Source: a virus
Length of the DNA: 64,000 nucleotides
IMG/VR virus record: IMGVR_UViG_3300035208_003482
Reading direction: 5' to 3' (one strand)
The position numbers and the translations under genes were made by a program. The notes under the pieces are model-generated. The model had not been told where the DNA came from, made no database searches, and saw nothing but the letters and a program-made list of their open reading frames with translations. Positions 2,402 through 47,686 of this stretch are shown here, one piece after another (the stretch's first letter is position 1; each line of letters starts with the position of its first letter).

Positions 2402-2600
2402 GATTCACCACCAGAGTGAACTACCATTACCTAAAGGTAAGGGCTTCCTATCGAACTTACGTTCTCAAGGCGTTTTAATTCGGTCTGTTCCATACCGAAT
2501 TTTAATACATTTATTGCTGCGTTAACATCTCTATCATGTTCCTTACCACATGATTTGCATTTCCATTCTCTTTCTTCTAACTTCAACTCTGTATTTATAT
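2396..2600 (-). ncRNA. Candidate omega-RNA (scaffold overlapping the tnpB 3' end, terminal hairpin, 'GGTAGTTCAC' end, then ~20-nt guide at 2396..2415)
   Basis: Sense strand '...GGAAGCCCTTACCTTTAGGTAATGGTAGTTCAC|TCTGGTGGTGAATCATGTTC'. Same terminal block as the other two TnpB loci with a different downstream sequence. Boundaries are approximate. Confidence 0.4.
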
Positions 2601-3576
2601 TACCACATTCTGAACATTTCTTAGAACTTGGCTCATATCTTCCTATCTTTATTAATCTCTTCCCATTCCATAAGGCTTTGTATTCTAACATTACTACAAA
2701 TGTGCTCCAAGAAACATCTCCGATATTTCTTGACATAGATGTATAAGACTTTTCCATTAGAGATTTTATATCAAGATCTTCTGTTATTATTACGTGGTTA
2801 TTGTTAACAATATCTTTAGATACTTTATGTAGAAAATCATCTCTTTTGTTACAAATCTTTTCATGCAATATAGCAATTTTATACTTTATGTTTCGGTAAT
2901 TAGAAGAACCTTTAATTTTTGTAGATAAAACCTTTTGTAAGGCTTTTAATTTCTTTAAGGATTTATGATAGAATTTAGGATTCTGTATTTTGTTTCCATT
3001 AGAGAAAGTTACAAATGTCTTTATTCCTAAATCTATTCCTATATTCTTATCTCCAGGAATTATGTTAGGTAATTCTTCTTTATTATCTACAAGAACGGAT
3101 ATGTAATACTTATTAGTACAAGTTTTTGAAATTGTACAAGTTTTAATTGTACCTTCAAAAGTTCTATGAAATTTAGCTTTAATTGTACCAATTTTAGGAA
3201 TACTAACGTGAGAATCTTTAAAGTTAACTTTAACAAATTGGGGAAGGGAAAATGATTGTTTAGAATATTTGGACTTAAAAGAAGGGAATTTATTTTGGTT
3301 CTTGAAGAATCTTTTATATGCTGAATCAAGATGTCTCAAGCTTTGTTGCAAAGCTTGAGAAGGTGCATCTTGTAACCAAATGAATTCCTCTTTAAGATCT
3401 TTTAGAAAAGAAGTTGCTAATTCATTATAAGAGATAGACTTTTTCTCAGAATCATAAACAGATTTCTTATGTTCGAGAGCTTTATTATATAAGAACCTGC
3501 AAGAGCCAAAAGCTCTTGCCAACTCTTCCGATTGGGAAGAAGTAGGGTAGATTCTATATTTGAAAGCTTTAAGCAT
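2431..3576 (-). CDS. tnpB: TnpB (IS200/IS605 OrfB-type RNA-guided endonuclease). RuvC triad present.
   Basis: N-terminus 'MLKAFKYRIYPT...ELARAFGSCRFLYNKAL'. RuvC-I 'DLGIKTF', RuvC-II 'ITEDLDIK', Zn finger 'CSECGN...CKSCGKEHDRDVNAAINV'. Confidence 0.8.
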   Translation of the reverse strand: MLKAFKYRIYPTSSQSEELARAFGSCRFLYNKALEHKKSVYDSEKKSISYNELATSFLKDLKEEFIWLQDAPSQALQQSLRHLDSAYKRFFKNQNKFPSFKSKYSKQSFSLPQFVKVNFKDSHVSIPKIGTIKAKFHRTFEGTIKTCTISKTCTNKYYISVLVDNKEELPNIIPGDKNIGIDLGIKTFVTFSNGNKIQNPKFYHKSLKKLKALQKVLSTKIKGSSNYRNIKYKIAILHEKICNKRDDFLHKVSKDIVNNNHVIITEDLDIKSLMEKSYTSMSRNIGDVSWSTFVVMLEYKALWNGKRLIKIGRYEPSSKKCSECGNINTELKLEEREWKCKSCGKEHDRDVNAAINVLKFGMEQTELKRLENVSSIGSPYL

Positions 3577-6521: not shown

Positions 6522-7289
6522 TTAACCATCACCATTCAAGGTTAATGGGTTAAGCTCAACCGGTTTATCCGATTGAGGTATCACAATAGGATATGTAACA
6601 TCAATTTGCTTCTTCCCAGAATCGGGAGGAAAGCGTTTGAGTACATGTACCTGATAACTACCAGGCGCTAACGCTAGCATCCATCGACCTTTTGTATTTG
6701 TACGAGTTTGATTTATGAGAGATCCATTTTCATCTAACAACTCTACTGTTGCTAAATAGATAGGTGAGTCTTCTCTAACCAAATTCTGAGACACGGAACA
6801 CTTAGTACCTTTGGTCTTTGGACCTCTTTGACCACGAGAATTTCCACGAGAAGCTGCAGACTCTAACAAATCAATATCACTTTCACTTTTGACCATCTGT
6901 GTTGGACGAGGTAAAGCATCATTCGAGAACTGACTCGCAAAAGCCAACGCTTCTGCTTCATCGTCTGATTCAAAAGGATCGACAGGGTTAATATCATCCT
7001 CAACATTAAGCCCATGACTTGCTGCGGCTTCAGTAAACTTATTTGTCCGTGATCTGGATTCAAAGTTGTCCTTGTTTACAACAGATGGAACAACCGGTAC
7101 ATTTGTAGTTTGTTGTACCTGTTGTGATTGTGATTGAACAACTGTTCCAGAACTCAAAGAAGCATTAACTCTAGATAGTAAAATCTTGAGAAGGTTCTCT
7201 GAATTCTGGACACGCTTATCCAACGTACTCAATCGAGCTTCAATATCTAACAGAATATCTGTTGCCGATCTTTTATCGTCAGTTACCAT
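6522..7289 (-). CDS. Hypothetical protein (acidic middle, beta-rich C-terminus)
   Basis: ORF only. Confidence 0.3.
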   Translation of the reverse strand: MVTDDKRSATDILLDIEARLSTLDKRVQNSENLLKILLSRVNASLSSGTVVQSQSQQVQQTTNVPVVPSVVNKDNFESRSRTNKFTEAAASHGLNVEDDINPVDPFESDDEAEALAFASQFSNDALPRPTQMVKSESDIDLLESAASRGNSRGQRGPKTKGTKCSVSQNLVREDSPIYLATVELLDENGSLINQTRTNTKGRWMLALAPGSYQVHVLKRFPPDSGKKQIDVTYPIVIPQSDKPVELNPLTLNGDG

Positions 7290-8365
7290 TAATCATCCAA
7301 GATTACACCAAAATCAATTGGTATTCTCTTAATTAATTGAATATTCTCAACTGGAACATTGTTACCAAGAATGAGTTTAGTAAGTACTTCGCGAGCTTCT
7401 TTTGCAGAAGACAGTGTTACAAACAACTTGTCATCAATGAAAATGGCAAATTGCCCGGCAGCTAGAGCTGATGAAATCTTTACAGTTGCTTGAGGCTCCT
7501 CAGCCTCTTCGGATTTCTCTTCCGAAAGATCAGGAGGTTCACCCTCATAATCTTCGTGCATCTTTTCTTCATCTTCTTCGGAAGATGAAGTAAGTTCATA
7601 CTCTTTTGCTTCAAATTCAAGCTTTAACTGATCAATAACATCATTGACCAATTGACCAACTGCAACTCTTTCAGCAGATGGAATCTTGGAGAACTGTATA
7701 AGGATATCACTCAGGATACCGTTCTTACCAAGAACCCTAGATTTAAGATCGGCAAAATCATCTAACGAATCCATCACTGACAGTTCTTCAGTGACTTCGG
7801 TCAGCATAACTTGAAGTTGATGCTCTAGGTTTTTACGAACTGAACTTTCAAGATCCTTTAGTGGATTCATTCCCTGAAGTGTTTCAACATGGTTTTGAAC
7901 CGCATCACCATCTTCTTCAGAAACAGTCTCTGGCCAATTGTTATCAACCATTTGTGATTTTGAATTCTTTGTATCCGGTAAACCAGTTACTTCTTTCGTT
8001 GCCCAAGCCGTTTCTACCTGCCCAACAGATACGAAATTGTTCTTTGGCGGTATAAAACCATCATCACTAAAATTCTGCTGAGCAGATACTACTGGTATTC
8101 CTTTCTTAAGAACAAGGTTAGATGATTGTTTTTTGTTTGGATCTGATGCTTTAATAACAACAGGCTTATTAGAAACTTCTTTCATGATAGGAAAGTCCCC
8201 TTTATTAGTTGGTTGAGGTGCAACTTTAGGAAGTCCAAACTCATCATGAAGAAGTGACTTACCACCATCCTTTGGCTCATAGTCAAGCCTTTGGTATTCT
8301 GGTGGTTGGCGCTTTGCATCCAAAATGCGTCGAACTCTATTTCCTCGAAGATCTTCAGTCATCAA
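7289..8365 (-). CDS. Hypothetical acidic protein
   Basis: ORF. Stop/start overlap with its neighbours. Confidence 0.3.
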   Translation of the reverse strand: MMTEDLRGNRVRRILDAKRQPPEYQRLDYEPKDGGKSLLHDEFGLPKVAPQPTNKGDFPIMKEVSNKPVVIKASDPNKKQSSNLVLKKGIPVVSAQQNFSDDGFIPPKNNFVSVGQVETAWATKEVTGLPDTKNSKSQMVDNNWPETVSEEDGDAVQNHVETLQGMNPLKDLESSVRKNLEHQLQVMLTEVTEELSVMDSLDDFADLKSRVLGKNGILSDILIQFSKIPSAERVAVGQLVNDVIDQLKLEFEAKEYELTSSSEEDEEKMHEDYEGEPPDLSEEKSEEAEEPQATVKISSALAAGQFAIFIDDKLFVTLSSAKEAREVLTKLILGNNVPVENIQLIKRIPIDFGVILDD

Positions 8366-9054: not shown

Positions 9055-11190
9055 TCACTTAAGAACCTTTTCTACCTTCTTTGAATAAACTGGTGGAGTT
9101 ACCTTCTTCGGGTCCAACCAATTTATTTCTGCATCATCTGGTAAATCCTCGACATGTTTGCAATTTGGATATCCCATACATGCTAATACCATAGTTTCTT
9201 TCATCAATGTTGCATATAACTCATTACCACAGTCTGAACATTTCTTTCCAAATGGCATCTTTCTCTTACCCATACACTTAGGATATTCCGAACATGAATA
9301 AAATGGTCCAAACTTACCATCAGGTCTTGGCACCATAGGTGCACCGCAATCTGGACACTTAACAGTTTCATCTACTTTAGCCCTTTGTGATTTAGGAACA
9401 ACCTTACCATCTTCGATATTGATATTAACAATACCATCACACCCAGCTTTATACTTTATACAACCAGCAAAAAATCCATACTTAGACTTCCTAACAACCG
9501 TATCACTACCACACTTAGGACATGGAATTCCAGTTGCCATACCTTGACTTCCACGAGCTTTCTGAAATTCTTCCTTGAACCCATTAAAGAACTCAGACAT
9601 CATACCAACATAATCAAGCTTACCTTCCGCAATAAGATCGAGTTTCTTCTCCATCTGTGCGGTGTACATATAATCCATGAAGGTAAATGAATCTTTCAAA
9701 TCATCAATTACCTTCTTTCCCAATTCTGTTGGTAAGAATCCATTGGCTGTATCTTTTACGTATTTACGAGTAGATATACGTGCAATGATAGATGCGTATG
9801 TACTAGGACGACCAATCTCTTTAGCTTCAAGCTCTCGAATAAGAGATGCCTCAGTGTATCGAGGGGATGGTTTGGTTTGAGACTTATCAACCTTAATACC
9901 AGGAGGTTGGATTAGTTTTACTGTGTCTGCTTTTACAAGCTGAGGTAATTCTACATCCTTATCCTTTTTCACAAATGGTTTCGCAACTACCATCCAACCT
10001 TCTTCTCGTTGGATTTTACCTTCAGCTATTAGATTATGTTCCCCAGCTTTGATAGTCACTTTGACTGTATCAAATTCTGCTGGAGTCATTTGAGAAGCAA
10101 CAAACGTTCTCCAAATAAGATTGTAGATCTTTGCTTCATCACCAGTTAAAGCAATCTTGTCAGGATGATCCTCTATATGAGTTGGTCGAATAGCCTCGTG
10201 TGCATCCTGTGCAGCTTCTTTGTTCTTGAACTCATTCGGAGTCTTGGGAATACTAAAACCTTGTTTGGTAATGTAATCCCTAACACCAACTATAGACTCT
10301 TCGCTGTTTCGAGTAGAGTCAGTTCTAATGTAAGTAACATGTCCAGCTTCATACAACTTCTGAGCTGCCGCCATTGTTCGATCAGATTTGATCTTCAATT
10401 TTGTACTAGCTTCCTGTTGCAGCATTGATGTTGTAAGAGGTGCAGGCGGCTTGCGCTCCAATCTCTTAGACTCAATATCCTGGACCTTGAAGTCTTTACG
10501 AGGATCAAGGTCCTTCTTAATATCTTTTGCCTCATCCTCGTTATCAATCCTTCGAGGATATTTGGCCAGGAATTTTACCCCATCCTTCTCAAATGTAGCG
10601 GATAGATTCCAATAGACCTCGGGAACGAAAGCTTCAATCTCGCGCTCTCGATCAACAATGATTCTTAGAGCAACAGATTGTACACGGCCTGCGCTTAACT
10701 TATCGCCAAGCTTCTTAGATATGTATGGTGAGACCATGAAACCCACAATACGATCTAAAACACGCCGAGCTTGTTGAGCATCAAACAGGTTCTTATCAAA
10801 CTCTTTAGGATTAGCAATAGCTTGTAATAAAGCTTTCTTGGTAATCTCATTAAATGTAATACGCTTTAATGGCTTATTTAGGTTTTTTAATTGGTCAGCT
10901 ATATGAAACGCTATTGCTTCGCCTTCTTTATCAGAATCAGAAGCTACATAAATTTCATCAGATGTTCTTGCAGCGTCTATAATTGATTTAATCACATCCC
11001 TTTTATCCGCAATAACCTCATATCTAGGAGCAAATCCATTCTGGATATCAATCCCAATATCATCACCACCCCTTCCATTAGAAAGATCAACAATATGTCC
11101 AAATGTTGGTCTAATTACAAAATTAGATCCTACAAAACTTTGTATTGTTTTTATTTTCCCGGGAGACTCAACTATTATAAGTTTTGTCAT
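9055..11190 (-). CDS. topA: DNA topoisomerase I (type IA, TopA-like) with C-terminal C4 zinc ribbons
   Basis: N-terminal Toprim '[13 protein letters not shown]...GHIVDL', '[11 protein letters not shown]'. Multiple 'CPKCG...C..C' ribbons at the C-terminus. Confidence 0.85.
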
Positions 11191-11426
11191 CTATTTCCCT
11201 TTAAAAGATTTTCTTTAGCAGAAAGAGGTCTTAAGTTATCACCACCCCTTCCATTAGAAAGGTCAACAATGTGTCCCATTGTTGGGCGCACAGTATATCC
11301 ACTCCCCAAAAGCTTGGAGATGGTTTTCATCTTCGCAGGAGATTCGACAATCAGTAGAGCGTTTGACATCACCCTTTTAGGGTGGCTTTCAAGGATTCCT
11401 CGACCCCAATCCTGGCGATCAGCCAA
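11187..11426 (-). pseudogene. Remnant 5' fragment (Toprim N-terminus) of a second, divergent topA allele
   Basis: '[40 protein letters not shown]' parallels the topA N-terminus. About 36 nt are near-identical to the topA 5' end. Its stop TGA overlaps the topA ATG (ATGA). Confidence 0.55.
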
Positions 11427-12378: not shown

Positions 12379-14652
12379 ATGCCTATTTATTTTTCGCCTC
12401 AAAAGGCCATGTCTCAATTAGTTCTGTCGAAAGACCAAGAAATTGCGTACAAAACCATTGCTAAATGGTTGGCAGATGGCGGTGTTGTTCACCCAAAACA
12501 GAAAGACCCTCAGCTATTAAGTCTTGGTGGTTATGCCGGCTCTGGAAAAGCGCTAGATATCAATACTCCTATACCAACTCCAAATGGTTGGACTATAATG
12601 GGAGAATTAAAAATTGGTGATGTAGTTTTCTCAGATGATGGAAAACCATGCTCAATCATTGCAATATCAGAGATTATGACTGGCCATGATTGTTTTGAAT
12701 TTGAATTTTCTGATGGAACAAAAGTCATTGCAGATTCAGATCATATTTGGAAAACTAAAAACTATAAAGAAAGAACTAAAAACAAACAACCAAAAGAAAG
12801 AATATCTAAAGAACTATTTAATACACAAAGAATAGGAAAACACAAACGTGTAAATCATTCTATTGATATTGTACCTGCTATAGAAATTGAAAGTAAAAAA
12901 CTTCCAATTGATCCATATTTACTTGGAGTTTGGCTTGGCGATGGCGCTAAATCTATGGCAAGAATATCAAGCATTGATAATGAAATTATAGATTCATTTA
13001 AACATGAATATAACATAAACAAAGTTGCTGGAGAAAATTGCGATTGGGGAATTAGTTCAAAAAATAATGGTCCATCATTAAAAGTTCAATTAAGAACATT
13101 GAATCTATTGTTTAATAAACATATTCCAACTATTTATTTGAGAAGTTCAAAAGAACAAAGAATGTCACTTCTTCGTGGTTTGATGGATACCGATGGAACT
13201 GTTTCTAAAGATACAGGAATACCATCATTTACCAATACAAATAAACAATTAGCTATTGATACTTTAGAACTAATTAGATCTCTTGGGTTTCATTCTAAAC
13301 TAACAACAGGCAAAGCTAAACTAAATGGTATTGTAACGTCTGATAAATATACCATACATTTCTCAGCAAATGAACCAGTTTTCAGGTTGTTAAGGAAAAA
13401 ACGCCTTCAAAAGATATTTAACTTTAGAGCAACATATGGAAGAAAATACATAACAAATGTACGTAAAATTGATTCTGTTCCAGTCAAATGTATAGCTGTT
13501 GACTCTTCTTCGAAAATGTATTTATGTTCTGATGGGTTTACTCCCACACATAATACAACACTCGTATCTACGATTGCTAAAGAGTTTGGATCAGCTATTC
13601 GCTTCGCTTTCTGCGCTTTGTCAGGAAGAGCTGCTAGTATTCTTGGTGTGAAGCTTCAAAATCAAGGTATTCGTTTCAAAGATGACGGACACTATTGTGG
13701 TACTATCCATCGACTGATTTATCGACCCATAGAAAATAGTGAAGGTGAAGTTATCTTCTGGGCAAAGAAAGAATCATTGGATTACGATGTTATCGTAATG
13801 GATGAAGCTTCCATGGTTTCGGAAGATATCTTTCGAGATCTTAAATCATACGGTATCGATATTTTGGCTGTTGGAGATCATGGTCAACTACCACCTATCG
13901 AAGGTAAATTCTCCTTGATGTCTGATCCTATCTTGAAGCTTGAAAAGATTCATCGACAAGCAGCTGATAATCCAATCATAAGTCTTTCGATGCACATTCG
14001 AGAGAGTGGTAGAATACCAAAAGATTATACCAACAACGATAAAGTTCAAATTGTTAAAAAGGGAGAATACATAGATTATCTGAAGGATATCTATTCCAAA
14101 AGTCAAGATCCTGAAAAGACAATTGATACAGCTGTTTTGTGTTACACAAACGCAACCAGATCCAAATTAAATATCATGATTCGTAATATGGTTTTTGGAA
14201 ATATATCTTCAATACCATTAGTTAATGATATTGTGATTTGTCTTAGAAACGCCGTCAATAACAGAAAAGTTCCTTTGTACAATGGGTTTAGAGGATATCT
14301 ATTAAATGGTGTTCAAGATGAAGGTGATTTCTATGAGGGTAATATTAGATTCCCTTATGAAGGATTTGATACCAATGTGAATAATTTATTGAAGTATCAA
14401 TTTGGATACAATAAAACATTTAGTTCATTTCAAGAACTTGAGAACTTTGGAATGGATGTAAAGCACTGGTCCGAGGTTGGTCTTTTATTTGATTACGGAT
14501 ATTCGATGACAGTTCATAAAGCACAAGGATCTCAGATGAGTAATGTTGTGCTGTTTAATGAACGCCCAGCTCCGGTATCGGACGACAACTACAAACGCTG
14601 GCTCTATACCGCGACCACCAGATCCTCGGACAAGCTAACAATTATTTTGTGA
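12379..14652 (+). CDS. SF1B DNA helicase (RecD/Dda/Pif1-like) with an intein inserted in Walker A
   Basis: Extein 'GYAGSGK|TTL' (P-loop), 'MDEASMV', 'VGDHGQLPPI', 'TVHKAQGSQ'. Confidence 0.75.
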   Translation: MPIYFSPQKAMSQLVLSKDQEIAYKTIAKWLADGGVVHPKQKDPQLLSLGGYAGSGKALDINTPIPTPNGWTIMGELKIGDVVFSDDGKPCSIIAISEIMTGHDCFEFEFSDGTKVIADSDHIWKTKNYKERTKNKQPKERISKELFNTQRIGKHKRVNHSIDIVPAIEIESKKLPIDPYLLGVWLGDGAKSMARISSIDNEIIDSFKHEYNINKVAGENCDWGISSKNNGPSLKVQLRTLNLLFNKHIPTIYLRSSKEQRMSLLRGLMDTDGTVSKDTGIPSFTNTNKQLAIDTLELIRSLGFHSKLTTGKAKLNGIVTSDKYTIHFSANEPVFRLLRKKRLQKIFNFRATYGRKYITNVRKIDSVPVKCIAVDSSSKMYLCSDGFTPTHNTTLVSTIAKEFGSAIRFAFCALSGRAASILGVKLQNQGIRFKDDGHYCGTIHRLIYRPIENSEGEVIFWAKKESLDYDVIVMDEASMVSEDIFRDLKSYGIDILAVGDHGQLPPIEGKFSLMSDPILKLEKIHRQAADNPIISLSMHIRESGRIPKDYTNNDKVQIVKKGEYIDYLKDIYSKSQDPEKTIDTAVLCYTNATRSKLNIMIRNMVFGNISSIPLVNDIVICLRNAVNNRKVPLYNGFRGYLLNGVQDEGDFYEGNIRFPYEGFDTNVNNLLKYQFGYNKTFSSFQELENFGMDVKHWSEVGLLFDYGYSMTVHKAQGSQMSNVVLFNERPAPVSDDNYKRWLYTATTRSSDKLTIIL
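12550..13554 (+). mobile_element. Intein (about 335 aa) with LAGLIDADG homing-endonuclease domain, inserted between K and T of the helicase P-loop
   Basis: Starts 'ALDINTPIPTPNGW' (block A with Ala1) and ends '...THN' + Thr(+1). LAGLIDADG motifs 'LLGVWLGDGA' and 'LLRGLMDTDGT'. The insert is markedly more AT-rich than the exteins. Confidence 0.7.
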
Positions 14653-38485: not shown

Positions 38486-39682
38486 ATGTCGTTCAAAGCG
38501 TTTCGATACAGAATCTATCCATCAAAAGAACAAGAAGCTTTTCTTGCTAAATCTTTTGGCTGCAATCGCTTTGTCTTTAATTTCTTCCTCAATAGAAGAA
38601 AACAAGAATATACTAATTCTAAAAACAACTTGAATTATTATGATCTTGCTAAAGAACTTACTCAACTAAAACAACGACAAGAATTTTCTTGGCTTAATGA
38701 TGTTAATTCTCAGATGTTGCAAAGCTCTCTTCGTAACATCGAAACTGCTTATACCAAATTCTTTACCAAACAGAATAAGTTTCCTAGATTCAAAAGCAAG
38801 AAGAATGAACAATGCTTTAAAATTCCACAAGCATTCTCTATAGAAGATGGTTTACTTTGGATACCTAAACTAAAATCCGGAATCAAAATTCGTCTTCATT
38901 CTCCTATTGGTGGTAAATTTGTATCTTGTTGTATTCGTAAAACTTGTTCTGGAAAGTATTATGCAAGTATTCAAACAGAACTTGAAATTGCTAAACTTCC
39001 ATTAAGTAATAATAAGGTTGGTTTAGATCTTGGAATCAAACATCTTATTACTGATTCAAATGGTAACAAGATTGATAATCTAAAAGCTTACAAATCCAAA
39101 CAAAAGAAATTAGCTTATAGAAGCAAACAACTGAGTAAGAAACAAAAAGGATCTTCAAATAGAAATAAAGCAAGAATATTGCTTGCTTTGATTCATGAAA
39201 AGATTTCAAACATAAGAAAAGATTACTTACACAAATTAAGTCATAAGATAGTTAGCGATAACCAAGTTATTATCTGTGAAGATTTAAGTGTAATCAAAAT
39301 GATGAAGAATCATAATCTTTCTAAGAGTATTGTAGATGCTTCTTGGGGAGAGTTGTTAAGGCAACTTGAATACAAATCAGAATGGTATGGAAGAACGTTT
39401 TATAAGATTGATAAATACTTTCCATCAAGTAAGATGTGTAATCAATGTAATTATGTTCTTCAAGATATGGAGCTTAAGGTTAGAGAATGGGAATGTCCAA
39501 AATGTCATGCAAAGCATGATAGGGACAAGAATGCAGCCAATAATATATTGGAACAAGGCTTAAAAGATTTGGGTTTATGGAACGTAATCCCAGAGAAGAA
39601 TTCTGAAAAGGATTCTTTGAAACAAAAACTTGGGGAGGCGCTATCAGTTGATAGGTCTGAGAACCAAGAAACTATTGCTTAA
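38486..39682 (+). CDS. tnpB: TnpB (IS200/IS605 OrfB-type RNA-guided endonuclease)
   Basis: 'MSFKAFRYRIYPS...FGCNRFVFN', 'DLGIKHL', 'ICEDLSV', 'CNQCN...CPKCHAKHDRDKNAANNI'. Confidence 0.8.
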   Translation: MSFKAFRYRIYPSKEQEAFLAKSFGCNRFVFNFFLNRRKQEYTNSKNNLNYYDLAKELTQLKQRQEFSWLNDVNSQMLQSSLRNIETAYTKFFTKQNKFPRFKSKKNEQCFKIPQAFSIEDGLLWIPKLKSGIKIRLHSPIGGKFVSCCIRKTCSGKYYASIQTELEIAKLPLSNNKVGLDLGIKHLITDSNGNKIDNLKAYKSKQKKLAYRSKQLSKKQKGSSNRNKARILLALIHEKISNIRKDYLHKLSHKIVSDNQVIICEDLSVIKMMKNHNLSKSIVDASWGELLRQLEYKSEWYGRTFYKIDKYFPSSKMCNQCNYVLQDMELKVREWECPKCHAKHDRDKNAANNILEQGLKDLGLWNVIPEKNSEKDSLKQKLGEALSVDRSENQETIA

Positions 39683-46059: not shown

Positions 46060-46509
46060 CTATAATCTATAGATTGGAGGATCTGCTCGCTCCCATTTAA
46101 TCTCCTGCTCACCTTTGTAATAGACCAGCTTGCCATCTTCGAATCCCCACTTCTCATATGACGCTCCGTCATAGATTGTTTCAAAGATGATGAACGATCC
46201 ATTTTCGACGTAAGGGGCTAGCTTCTGGAAGAATTCAAACTCTACTCCATCAACCCAGCCCTCACACTCTCTGTTGATTTTAGTAATCCCATCTTGGCGA
46301 GAAGCAAGAGCCCTCCAACCAATATTACTAACAACTTCTTTAATTGAGTCATCGTTTGGATAATGCTCAATAAGAAACTTGTCAACATTCTCTCTGGTGA
46401 CTTTGAACGTTCCGGATGTGTTGATACTATCTACGCCCATGTTATTACCCCTTAACGCAAACGATCTGTCGAAGCTCGTGTTGAATTTCAACAAGATCCT
46501 TTTGAGCAT
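46060..46509 (-). CDS. Hypothetical protein
   Basis: ORF. Confidence 0.25.
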   Translation of the reverse strand: MLKRILLKFNTSFDRSFALRGNNMGVDSINTSGTFKVTRENVDKFLIEHYPNDDSIKEVVSNIGWRALASRQDGITKINRECEGWVDGVEFEFFQKLAPYVENGSFIIFETIYDGASYEKWGFEDGKLVYYKGEQEIKWERADPPIYRL

Positions 46510-47686
46510 TCATTACGTCTTCGATATTTTTGTAAGCACCTGGAGTCTCATCAAGGACAGAAGAATCTTTCTTACACTCAATACCTTCCGTTGCTTTGAT
46601 ATGATCTTCAACAGTAAATGTTTTCATAGCTTGGGTTCTGCTCATCTTTCTACCAGCACCATGTGATGCAGATTTGTAAGCATCTTCATTACCCAAACCT
46701 TTAACAATATATGTCTTTGCACCCATGCTCCCAGGAATTATAGCGAGCCTGCCAAGGTCAGCATTAATTGCTCCCTTTCTAGTAATTAGAACATTTCTAC
46801 CAAAATGGTTTTCATAAGCAATATAGTTATGATGACAGCTAATTGTTTGAACATCACGTTCAAACTTCGGAACTAACTTACTCTTCTTAAGAGCTTTTAA
46901 ACCAAAGTCTCTCATTAACTCCCTGTTAATTTGAGCATATCTTTGCGCCCATTTGATACCTTGCATATAATCATTGAAGGCATCTGTTCCCTTTGGAAGA
47001 AAGGCCAGATCAACATCTGGTAATTCTATAAACCATCTTTTCATCTCACTTTTTGCTAAGTCAATGAAATATTGTCCGATTTTATTTCCAGGTCCACGGG
47101 ATCCTGAATGTAGAGATATCCCAACTCTATTAAGATCATCCACTACAATTTCATAGTAGTGATTATTACTTCCGAGTGTTCCTAACTGACTTATCGGATT
47201 TTTATGAGCAAGTTTTGGATGCTTCTTAACTAGGTCTTTGTATCCTGGTTCTAGTTCTTCCCAAGCAATACAAACCTCTGTTGGGATATTTCTCCAAGAA
47301 CCTTTGTCATTTTCTTCTTTTGGATAAAATCCATGAGGAATTGCATCCTCTAAAGCTTCCCTAATGGAAAGTAAATCTTTTGGTAGCATATCATATTTTA
47401 AAGTTGTCAATTCATAATCACACCCGCATCCAATGTCTACCCCGCAAGCTGCCGGAATTATTGCGTTTATTGTCGGAATTACAGATCCTATTGTTGCACC
47501 AATACCACAATGAGCATCAGGCATAACAGCAAGTCCATGAGGATCTATAAATGGAAGATTTGCAACATTATGAAGTTGCATTTCCGCTTGTTGTTCAATT
47601 TCAACTCCAAGCGTCCAACGTTTAATTGGTACCTTGGCACCGATTTGTTTTTCGATATTTCCATCTCTATAAACGTGATAGTTCAT
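46445..47686 (-). CDS. rtcB: RtcB-family RNA ligase (3'-phosphate/5'-OH RNA-splicing ligase)
   Basis: 'MPDAHCGIGATIGSVIPT', 'CGVDIGCGCD', 'HSGSRGPGNKIG', 'CHHNY', 'SHGAGR'. Confidence 0.85.
   Translation of the reverse strand: MNYHVYRDGNIEKQIGAKVPIKRWTLGVEIEQQAEMQLHNVANLPFIDPHGLAVMPDAHCGIGATIGSVIPTINAIIPAACGVDIGCGCDYELTTLKYDMLPKDLLSIREALEDAIPHGFYPKEENDKGSWRNIPTEVCIAWEELEPGYKDLVKKHPKLAHKNPISQLGTLGSNNHYYEIVVDDLNRVGISLHSGSRGPGNKIGQYFIDLAKSEMKRWFIELPDVDLAFLPKGTDAFNDYMQGIKWAQRYAQINRELMRDFGLKALKKSKLVPKFERDVQTISCHHNYIAYENHFGRNVLITRKGAINADLGRLAIIPGSMGAKTYIVKGLGNEDAYKSASHGAGRKMSRTQAMKTFTVEDHIKATEGIECKKDSSVLDETPGAYKNIEDVMNAQKDLVEIQHELRQIVCVKG

Follow-up and report, generated by a model that had tools for sequence, protein, structure and literature searches.

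The virus record IMGVR_UViG_3300035208_003482 in IMG/VR contains a helicase gene whose ATP-binding Walker A motif is divided in two by 335 extra codons within one open reading frame (ORF). This locus raises the question of what the insert is: a self-splicing mobile element, and if so of which kind, or a part of the enzyme itself. We analyzed a stretch of 64,000 nucleotides from this record (here called the window) by comparing the insert and its host gene with sequence, structure, and viral databases. The sequence evidence makes it very likely that the insert belongs to the class 3 inteins and is of full length, with a two-motif LAGLIDADG homing endonuclease nested inside a HINT splicing domain, and that it interrupts a Dda/RecD-like superfamily 1B (SF1B) helicase between Lys and Thr of the Walker A motif. 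Class 3 inteins are defined by the lack of Ser, Thr, and Cys at the N terminus together with the WCT triplet (positions B:12, F:4, and G:5), and they usually have Ser or Thr at position +1 (Tori et al. 2010, PMC2807308; also PMC5050341). They have been found in helicase-like proteins, mostly within the ATPase P loop (PMC2807308).

Insert boundaries, host helicase, and empty sites

The insert comprises residues 58 to 392 of the ORF (nucleotides 12550 to 13554; 1005 nt, or 335 codons, in frame). In the translation, the N-terminal junction reads ...GGYAGSGK↓ALDINTPIPTPNGW... and the C-terminal junction ...DGFTPTHN↓TTLVSTIAKEF (arrows mark junctions). When the insert is deleted in silico, GYAGSGKTTL is recovered, which fits the Walker A pattern GxxxxGKT. 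A first-pass annotation, made from the letters alone, had proposed an Ala1 intein at these coordinates, splitting the extein as GYAGSGK↓TTL. Translation of the ORF showed these boundaries to be exact to the base, with the Walker A motif of an SF1 helicase interrupted precisely between its Lys and its Thr, and both the Ala at position 1 and the HN↓T at the C-terminal junction were confirmed by the translation and by relatives. The start codon is probably ATG 12409, since homologues begin (MSEI/MSKI) at the corresponding position and AAAGG lies upstream of this ATG; the precursor would then be 747 aa long and the spliced helicase 412 aa. The identical precursor protein is encoded on two independent metagenome contigs (ENA ERZ27247350 and JGI 3300014204). 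An Rfam scan of the window matched zero RNA families, and there is therefore no sign of introns.

The spliced protein matched the Pfam models AAA_30 (E = 1.6e-17), AAA_19 (3.8e-14), and UvrD_C_2 (7.3e-14), as well as PHROG 325, “Dda-like helicase” (4.5e-83). Its matches in the PDB were a “putative deoxyribonuclease” (9kwf), Deinococcus radiodurans RecD2 (3e1s), and T4 Dda (3upu). Beyond the restored Walker A motif, translation of the C-extein revealed Walker B (VIVMDEAS) and the helicase motifs GDHGQLPP, TVHKAQGSQ, and YTATTRS. With Walker A, Walker B, the SF1 motifs, and an architecture of AAA_30 plus UvrD_C_2, the host protein is by sequence a Dda/RecD-like SF1B helicase. The Pfam PIF1 model scored below its cut-off (20.5 versus 25.9 bits), so we do not claim Pif1 membership; of the earlier description “Pif1/RecD-like,” only the RecD/Dda half is retained.

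Searching with the spliced sequence returned thousands of homologues. In the closest of these (P0121, P0122, and P0123; 91, 89, and 86% identical; 412 to 413 aa), the insert is absent and GTGKS/TLV is uninterrupted. The N-extein is 81 to 89% identical to the N termini of these three proteins, and the C-extein is 86 to 92% identical to intein-less homologues. P0122 is encoded on a 121-kb NCBI metagenome-assembled contig that shares the gene order of the window (topoisomerase IA, metallophosphatase, helicase, Hsp20, BubE-domain protein, and RNA ligase). The first-pass annotation had taken the helicase to be probably essential; what the comparison shows in this respect is that the gene is kept in synteny at locus L003 (topoisomerase, phosphatase, helicase, and Hsp20). 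There, the empty site is precise: L003 reads GGAAAA↓ACAACG, and the window reads GGAAAA↓(1005 nt)↓ACAACA. Overall, the helicase genes of the window and of the intein-less syntenic relative are 80% identical in nucleotide sequence (MAFFT alignment of the spliced sequence, as the full gene misplaced the short N-extein).

We also scanned IMG/VR with the helicase alignment and examined the 80 best related helicase loci. None carried an intein in the P loop (0/80), and the one locus with a weak intein match (L007) has it at a C-terminal site instead. The scan of IMG/VR with the single precursor protein as the query gave no match. When 4 kb surrounding the gene were compared with GenBank phages by blastn, a single match (88 nt, 75% identity) and no annotated close relative were returned. 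Two fragments do have this site occupied by an intein. P0001, an N-terminal fragment, reads GFAGTGK↓ALALNTLIPTPNGW, and its intein part is 69% identical to that of the window; P0141, a C-terminal fragment, reads ...PTHN↓TTLVSTVAKEF, and its intein and C-extein are 70% and 78% identical, respectively. The comparison with intein-less homologues that the first-pass annotation had recommended thus found both states: because P0001 and P0141 are occupied while the nearest helicases (P0121 to P0123) are empty, the occurrence of the intein is patchy, as expected of a homing element.

A different intein was observed elsewhere in this helicase family. P0170, P0172, and locus L007 (2983 to 5409) carry a class 1-type intein (Cys1, Cys+1, LAGLIDADG_3 plus Intein_splicing) inside the C-terminal motif, TVHK↓...↓QGSQ. 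Together with the P-loop site, this site gives the family at least two intein insertion points.

Splicing residues, endonuclease, and predicted fold

The insert matched the class 3 DnaB mini-inteins in the PDB (6rix, E = 1.5e-27; 6bs8, 2.5e-27; E values for 6rix, 6riy, and 6bs8 ranged up to 7.3e-27). These alignments are gap-free over the first 71 to 78 aa and over the last 35 to 36 aa (for 6bs8, query 300 to 335 versus chain 104 to 139). The structure 6bs8 is that of Mycobacterium smegmatis (Msm) DnaBi1, a class 3 intein that interrupts the P loop of DnaB; its WCT triplet consists of Trp67, Cys118, and Thr137, and its block B DxxH of Asp62 and His65 (Kelley et al. 2018, PMC6195587). The insert is in register with it: D62, H65, and W67 have the same numbers, and C314, T333, and N335 correspond to C118, T137, and N139.

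Conservation was counted in 116 full-length intein relatives retrieved from the database. Position 1 of the insert is Ala (GCG, 12550 to 12552) and hence offers no Cys, Ser, or Thr nucleophile; the same residue occupies this position in 111 of the relatives, the exceptions including Cys, Gln, and Arg once each (e.g., P0006, P0017, and P0036). At position −1, 115 of the 116 have Lys; at +1, Ser (101 relatives) outnumbers Thr (14). Here the +1 residue is Thr (ACA, 13555 to 13557), which doubles as the Walker A Thr. The WCT triplet is present (W67 at B:12, C314 at F:4, and T333 at G:5) and each of its residues is invariant (116/116), as are block B His65 and the C-terminal His334-Asn335. In a six-frame translation of the window, a hidden Markov model of the 116 relatives matched the intein (E = 4.9e-122) and nothing else.

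Every sequence feature that defines class 3 was therefore found in the insert, and the fact that it has a WCT triplet conflicts with the definition of class 2. Given the WCT triplet, Thr+1, and the gap-free alignment with Msm DnaBi1, the predicted initiating nucleophile is Cys314, rather than the +1 residue attacking directly. The first-pass annotation had read the N-terminal Ala as a sign of a noncanonical mechanism that bypasses the first acyl shift. This was correct, and with blocks A, B, F, and G all located (Table 1), it can be sharpened to class 3 as opposed to the KlbA type of class 2.

The middle of the insert has no counterpart in the mini-inteins, and its only sequence match in the PDB was the endonuclease part of PI-SceI (E about 9e-6). 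Two Pfam models matched within intein residues 192 to 288: LAGLIDADG_3 (PF14528; E = 2.7e-9; 37.6 bits versus a gathering cut-off of 22.5) and Hom_end (PF05204; E = 1.7e-6; 28.5 bits versus 21.1). Both LAGLIDADG motifs noticed in the first pass were confirmed, and each carries an invariant Asp (Asp131 and Asp215); a 40-sequence alignment shows no variation at Lys190 or Lys283. Retention of the catalytic residues across about 40% sequence identity argues for selection on the endonuclease.

We predicted the structure of the intein with AlphaFold2, using the 40-sequence alignment (mean predicted local distance difference test score, 96.0; predicted template modeling score, 0.93). In a Foldseek search of the PDB with this model, PI-SceI ranked first (E = 7.7e-19; TMq, 0.78), ahead of the archaeal VMA and PI-PfuI inteins; the class 3 DnaB inteins came next, and after them I-DmoI, which matched the endonuclease part. 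For the splicing domain, scores were high against both 6bs8 (TMt, 0.86 to 0.89) and 6rix (TMt, 0.82 to 0.85). In the model, the splicing domain has the HINT fold, and the endonuclease has the two-motif LAGLIDADG fold (alpha-beta-beta-alpha-beta-beta-alpha) of PI-SceI, PI-PfuI, and I-DmoI.

Table 1. Features of the interrupted helicase gene, with positions in the 64,000-nt window
Feature	Position	Strand	Remarks
Helicase precursor ORF (N-extein, intein, and C-extein)	12379..14652	+	Single uninterrupted frame, 757 aa from ATG 12379
N-extein	12379..12549	+	Closed by Walker A residues G-Y-A-G-S-G-K at 12529-12549; Lys-1 codon 12547-12549
Probable class 3 intein, Ala1 to Asn335	12550..13554	+	335 aa; PDB, family hidden Markov model, AlphaFold, Foldseek, empty site in L003
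Block A (ALDINTPIPTPNGW)	12550..12591	+	Ala1 in place of Cys/Ser; L2, T6, T10, and G13 invariant in 116 relatives
Cys48	12691..12693	+	Aligned Cys to Cys with 6bs8; Cys in 113/116 relatives
Block B (GTKVIADSDHIWK)	12715..12753	+	Asp62 (B:7) 114/116, His65 (B:10) 116/116, Trp67 (B:12) 116/116
Segment without counterpart in DnaBi1 mini-inteins (about aa 80-299)	12787..13446	+	LAGLIDADG domain plus linker/DNA-recognition region
LAGLIDADG motif 1, LLGVWLGDG (aa 124-132)	12919..12945	+	Catalytic Asp131; G126, W128, G130, D131, and G132 invariant in 116
LAGLIDADG motif 2, LLRGLMDTDG (aa 207-216)	13168..13197	+	Catalytic Asp215; G210, L211, D213, D215, and G216 invariant in 116
Block F (PVKCIAVDSSSKMYLC)	13480..13527	+	Cys314 (F:4), predicted initiating nucleophile; Cys in 116/116
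Block G (GFTPTHN↓T)	13534..13557	+	Thr333 (G:5), His334, and Asn335, each 116/116; Thr+1 at 13555-13557
C-extein, remaining SF1B helicase core and stop codon	13555..14652	+	Pfam AAA_30, AAA_19, UvrD_C_2; PHROG 325

Proposed splicing and homing weighed against alternatives

The mechanism that we propose is derived by homology with Msm DnaBi1 and with the DnaB intein of mycobacteriophage Bethlehem (MP-Be DnaB), the class 3 prototype, for which such a mechanism has been established biochemically (PMC2807308). In both of these inteins, mutation of the block F Cys abolishes splicing and N-terminal cleavage. The precursor would be translated with a split P loop and, because of this split, would be expected to be unable to hydrolyze ATP. 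Cys314, aided by block B residues His65, Trp67, and Asp62, would attack the bond between Lys(−1) and Ala1, forming a block F thioester branched intermediate, and the N-extein would then be transferred to the hydroxyl of Thr+1. Cyclization of Asn335, assisted by His334, would free the intein, and an O-to-N acyl shift would remake GYAGSGKTTL, yielding an active helicase of about 412 aa and a free 335-aa intein. During co-infection, the freed intein could act as a homing endonuclease through Asp131 and Asp215, cutting intein-less helicase alleles around GGAAAA↓ACAAC, the candidate target defined by the empty site of L003, and repair of the cut allele would copy the intein in. We infer from this homology that the window intein both splices and cleaves DNA.

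Ala1 taken alone is compatible with a class 2, KlbA-type intein, and this is the mechanism that the term “Ala1 intein” most readily suggests: the +1 residue would attack the N-terminal bond directly, and the block F Cys would take no part. The Mja KlbA intein indeed shares Ala1 and hence also lacks an initial N-S acyl shift. However, class 2 inteins are by definition devoid of the WCT triplet, and Mja KlbA has Asp at F:4, Cys at +1, and direct attack by the latter (PMC2807308). None of this fits the window intein, in which W67, C314, and T333 are present and invariant in the family, the +1 residue is Thr, and the nearest solved structures are those of class 3 inteins, leaving class 2 highly improbable. 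Still less credible is the idea that the insert is an accessory domain native to this lineage of helicases, for which nothing but the continuity of the ORF speaks. Helicases 86 to 91% identical to this one lack the insert entirely, as do all 80 of the best related IMG/VR loci. A module about 40% identical, with the same GK↓...HN↓S/T junctions, also occurs in unrelated dCTP deaminases, in terminases, and in one fragment annotated as a replicative DNA helicase. These comparisons rule out a native insertion domain, the alternative that the first-pass annotation had itself named, and we consider that reading next to impossible.

An intein could also have decayed, either inactivating the helicase gene or leaving a precursor that serves in another role. 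Loss of function over time does occur in inteins that have become fixed in a population, and the same samples showed no close relative with an empty site. We nevertheless judge a splicing-dead insert to be improbable: the frame is open across 757 codons; the residues known to be needed by homologous class 3 inteins (D62, H65, W67, C48, C314, T333, H334, N335, and Thr+1) are all intact, as are both LAGLIDADG Asp residues; the identical protein recurs in two independent samples; and the predicted fold is compact and very confident.

Nothing that we observed contradicts the assignment to a class 3 intein, but several points qualify how active and how recently acquired it may be. The endonuclease could be catalytically intact and yet no longer find empty targets. 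The inteins of P0141 and P0001 (about 70% identical to that of the window) are no more similar to it than are their exteins (78 to 85%). This similarity therefore does not establish recent horizontal transfer, and prolonged vertical residence accompanied by losses would fit it equally well. The base composition, too, contrasts only modestly. The G+C content of the insert (30.5%) is lower than that of the N-extein (42.7%), the C-extein (36.7%), and the whole window (37.9%), placing it within the lowest 4.5% of 1005-nt segments; however, positions 14000 to 14400 of the C-extein are just as AT-rich (30 to 32% G+C), and for this reason we treat the compositional signal as real yet weak evidence. 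The first-pass annotation had called the insert visibly more AT-rich than its flanks and consistent with horizontal acquisition. The difference from the flanks holds to this modest degree, and the patchy distribution and lower G+C content agree with acquisition as such, whereas the divergence of the alleles does not by itself prove a recent event.

Cys48 touches on a further, more speculative idea. In Msm DnaBi1, Cys48 is essential for splicing, is the disulfide partner of catalytic Cys118, and has been called “non-conserved” (PMC6195587). Conservation of this residue in 113 of the 116 relatives, and its match to the Cys48-Cys118 trap of DnaBi1, would suit a redox switch in which Cys48 and Cys314 keep the helicase precursor inactive under oxidizing or metal stress and allow its activation in a reducing cell. 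The GK↓S/T lineage as a whole might then be a general redox-gated module that hops between P-loop ATPases and even the EGK↓SSLGR site in dCTP deaminases, which is not a P loop. We regard this as doubtful, with a slim chance of being right.

Related inteins, genomic setting, and significance

Full-length relatives of the class 3 intein, 35 to 45% identical over the whole intein, occupy G-K↓S/T sites in many unrelated proteins, including terminases of several families (PF03354, PF03237, and PF04466), other ATPase-like proteins, and dCTP deaminases. The last dominate, with 92 of the 116 closest full-length relatives inserted at EGK↓SSLGR (in the range P0007 to P0120); this site is not a P loop, yet it has the common G-K↓S motif. 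An intein-containing phage dCTP deaminase has been reported previously, but with an HNH-type endonuclease (PMC6293099). The closest intein match overall is P0001, the same-site helicase fragment. Its label in the JGI source, “replicative DNA helicase,” sits on a fragment of a related allele. Movement of inteins between unrelated exteins via nucleotide-binding motifs has been proposed before (PMC5050341; bioRxiv 10.1101/2025.01.02.630785), and the view of the P loop as a classic intein hotspot, voiced in the first pass, agrees with the literature (PMC5050341, PMC2807308).

Among known systems, the closest solved relatives are Msm DnaBi1 (6bs8) and Mycobacterium chimaera DnaB-1 (6rix/6riy), with E values of about 1e-27. 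They share the numbering of Ala1, Cys48, Asp62, His65, and Trp67 and the C-terminal pattern ...VPV(K/R)C...PTHN, and in Msm DnaBi1, as would be the case here, the +1 Ser/Thr of the ATPase P loop is also the splice nucleophile. In contrast, these mini-inteins are about 139 to 145 aa long and have no endonuclease, to which the window intein adds about 220 aa with a LAGLIDADG endonuclease; their hosts are bacterial superfamily 4 DnaB helicases instead of a phage SF1B Dda/RecD-like enzyme, and the +1 residue of Msm DnaBi1 is Ser rather than Thr. MP-Be DnaB is similar in size (about 341 aa) and likewise interrupts a phage helicase, lacks an N-terminal nucleophile, and has the WCT triplet and Thr+1 (PMC2807308). 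It differs in its DnaB-type host and, comparing by published description, in having Ser62 rather than Asp62 at B:7.

The insertion point, between the Walker A Lys and a nucleophilic Thr, is the “classic” one described for P-loop inteins such as mycobacteriophage TerL1-a (Kelley et al. 2016, PMC5050341), and the terminase inteins at GK↓S/T include full-length relatives that are about 40% identical. Nonetheless, the described P-loop, terminase, and Cas4 class 3 inteins reside in other exteins and in actinobacteriophage hosts (PMC5050341; bioRxiv 10.1101/2025.01.02.630785). The best whole-chain structural match, PI-SceI of yeast VMA1 (1vde/1ef0/1lws), combines a HINT domain with a nested LAGLIDADG domain in the same way; it is, however, a eukaryotic class 1 intein (Cys1, Cys+1) of 454 aa, with an identity of only about 16%.

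The window encodes topoisomerase IA, an NAD-dependent DNA ligase (54855 to 56777, minus strand), an RtcB RNA ligase (46445 to 47686, minus strand), an RNA ligase, a nucleotidyltransferase, Hsp20, a protein with the N-terminal domain of Phe-tRNA synthetase (7289 to 8365, minus strand), and two TnpB-like transposases; many other ORFs had no matches. The syntenic relative also carries a Phe-tRNA-synthetase N-domain protein, together with ribosomal protein S21 (L003, 1005 to 1337), and related helicases are encoded on viral contigs in IMG/VR that reach 434 kb. A tRNA scan of the 64-kb window found none. By gene content, the window looks like part of a huge-phage genome.

Several other features of the window were recorded. 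Immediately upstream of the topoisomerase IA gene (topA; 9055 to 11190, minus strand), a 79-codon ORF (11187 to 11426, minus strand) repeats the first 44 or so codons of that gene, encoding the Toprim N terminus. This remnant is 86% identical in nucleotide sequence to the 5′ end of the L003 topA; the current 5′ end is 75% identical to L003 and 74% identical to the remnant, and both copies end 3′ in an identical ATGGAAGGGGTGGTGAT. It looks as though the 5′ end of topA was replaced by a diverged allele and the old start was left behind. A LAGLIDADG_3 ORF (56750 to 57811, plus strand; 353 aa; E = 5.7e-7) lies between the NAD-dependent ligase gene and an AAA ATPase gene (57797 to 58840), on the opposite strand and slightly overlapping both, in the window's most AT-rich kilobase (25.9% G+C). 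This ORF probably represents a free-standing homing endonuclease gene; kinship with the intein endonuclease was considered and rejected, as the motifs alone match. An 864-aa protein (22144 to 24738, minus strand) contains the shoulder domain of Major Vault Protein (E = 5e-28) together with a Vault_3 repeat (2.9e-9); it had zero PHROG matches, which is unusual in a phage-like genome. Two paralogous ORFs (2431 to 3576, minus strand; 38486 to 39682, plus strand) matched PHROG 506, “transposase” (E = 8e-125 and 6e-128, respectively), and we read them as TnpB/OrfB-like.

The window intein belongs to a class that is already well described, and the general understanding of inteins is unchanged. The papers that we consulted name DnaB, RecG, Snf2, terminases, and Cas4/RecB, besides a handful of others, as class 3 hosts. 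In the literature that we searched, a Dda/RecD-like SF1B helicase was not among these hosts, neither in PMC5050341 nor in bioRxiv 10.1101/2025.01.02.630785, from which “RecD” and “Dda” are absent, although a prior report may exist. For annotation, the gene should be described as a helicase precursor (N-extein, intein, and C-extein) and not as a 757-aa fusion protein. As a relative of the DnaBi1 scaffold that has Thr+1 and contains a homing endonuclease, the intein could also serve protein engineering. Its huge-phage-like genomic setting is new for class 3 inteins, and the intein fits the view that these inteins are phage-centered and spread among unrelated proteins via short nucleotide-binding motifs.

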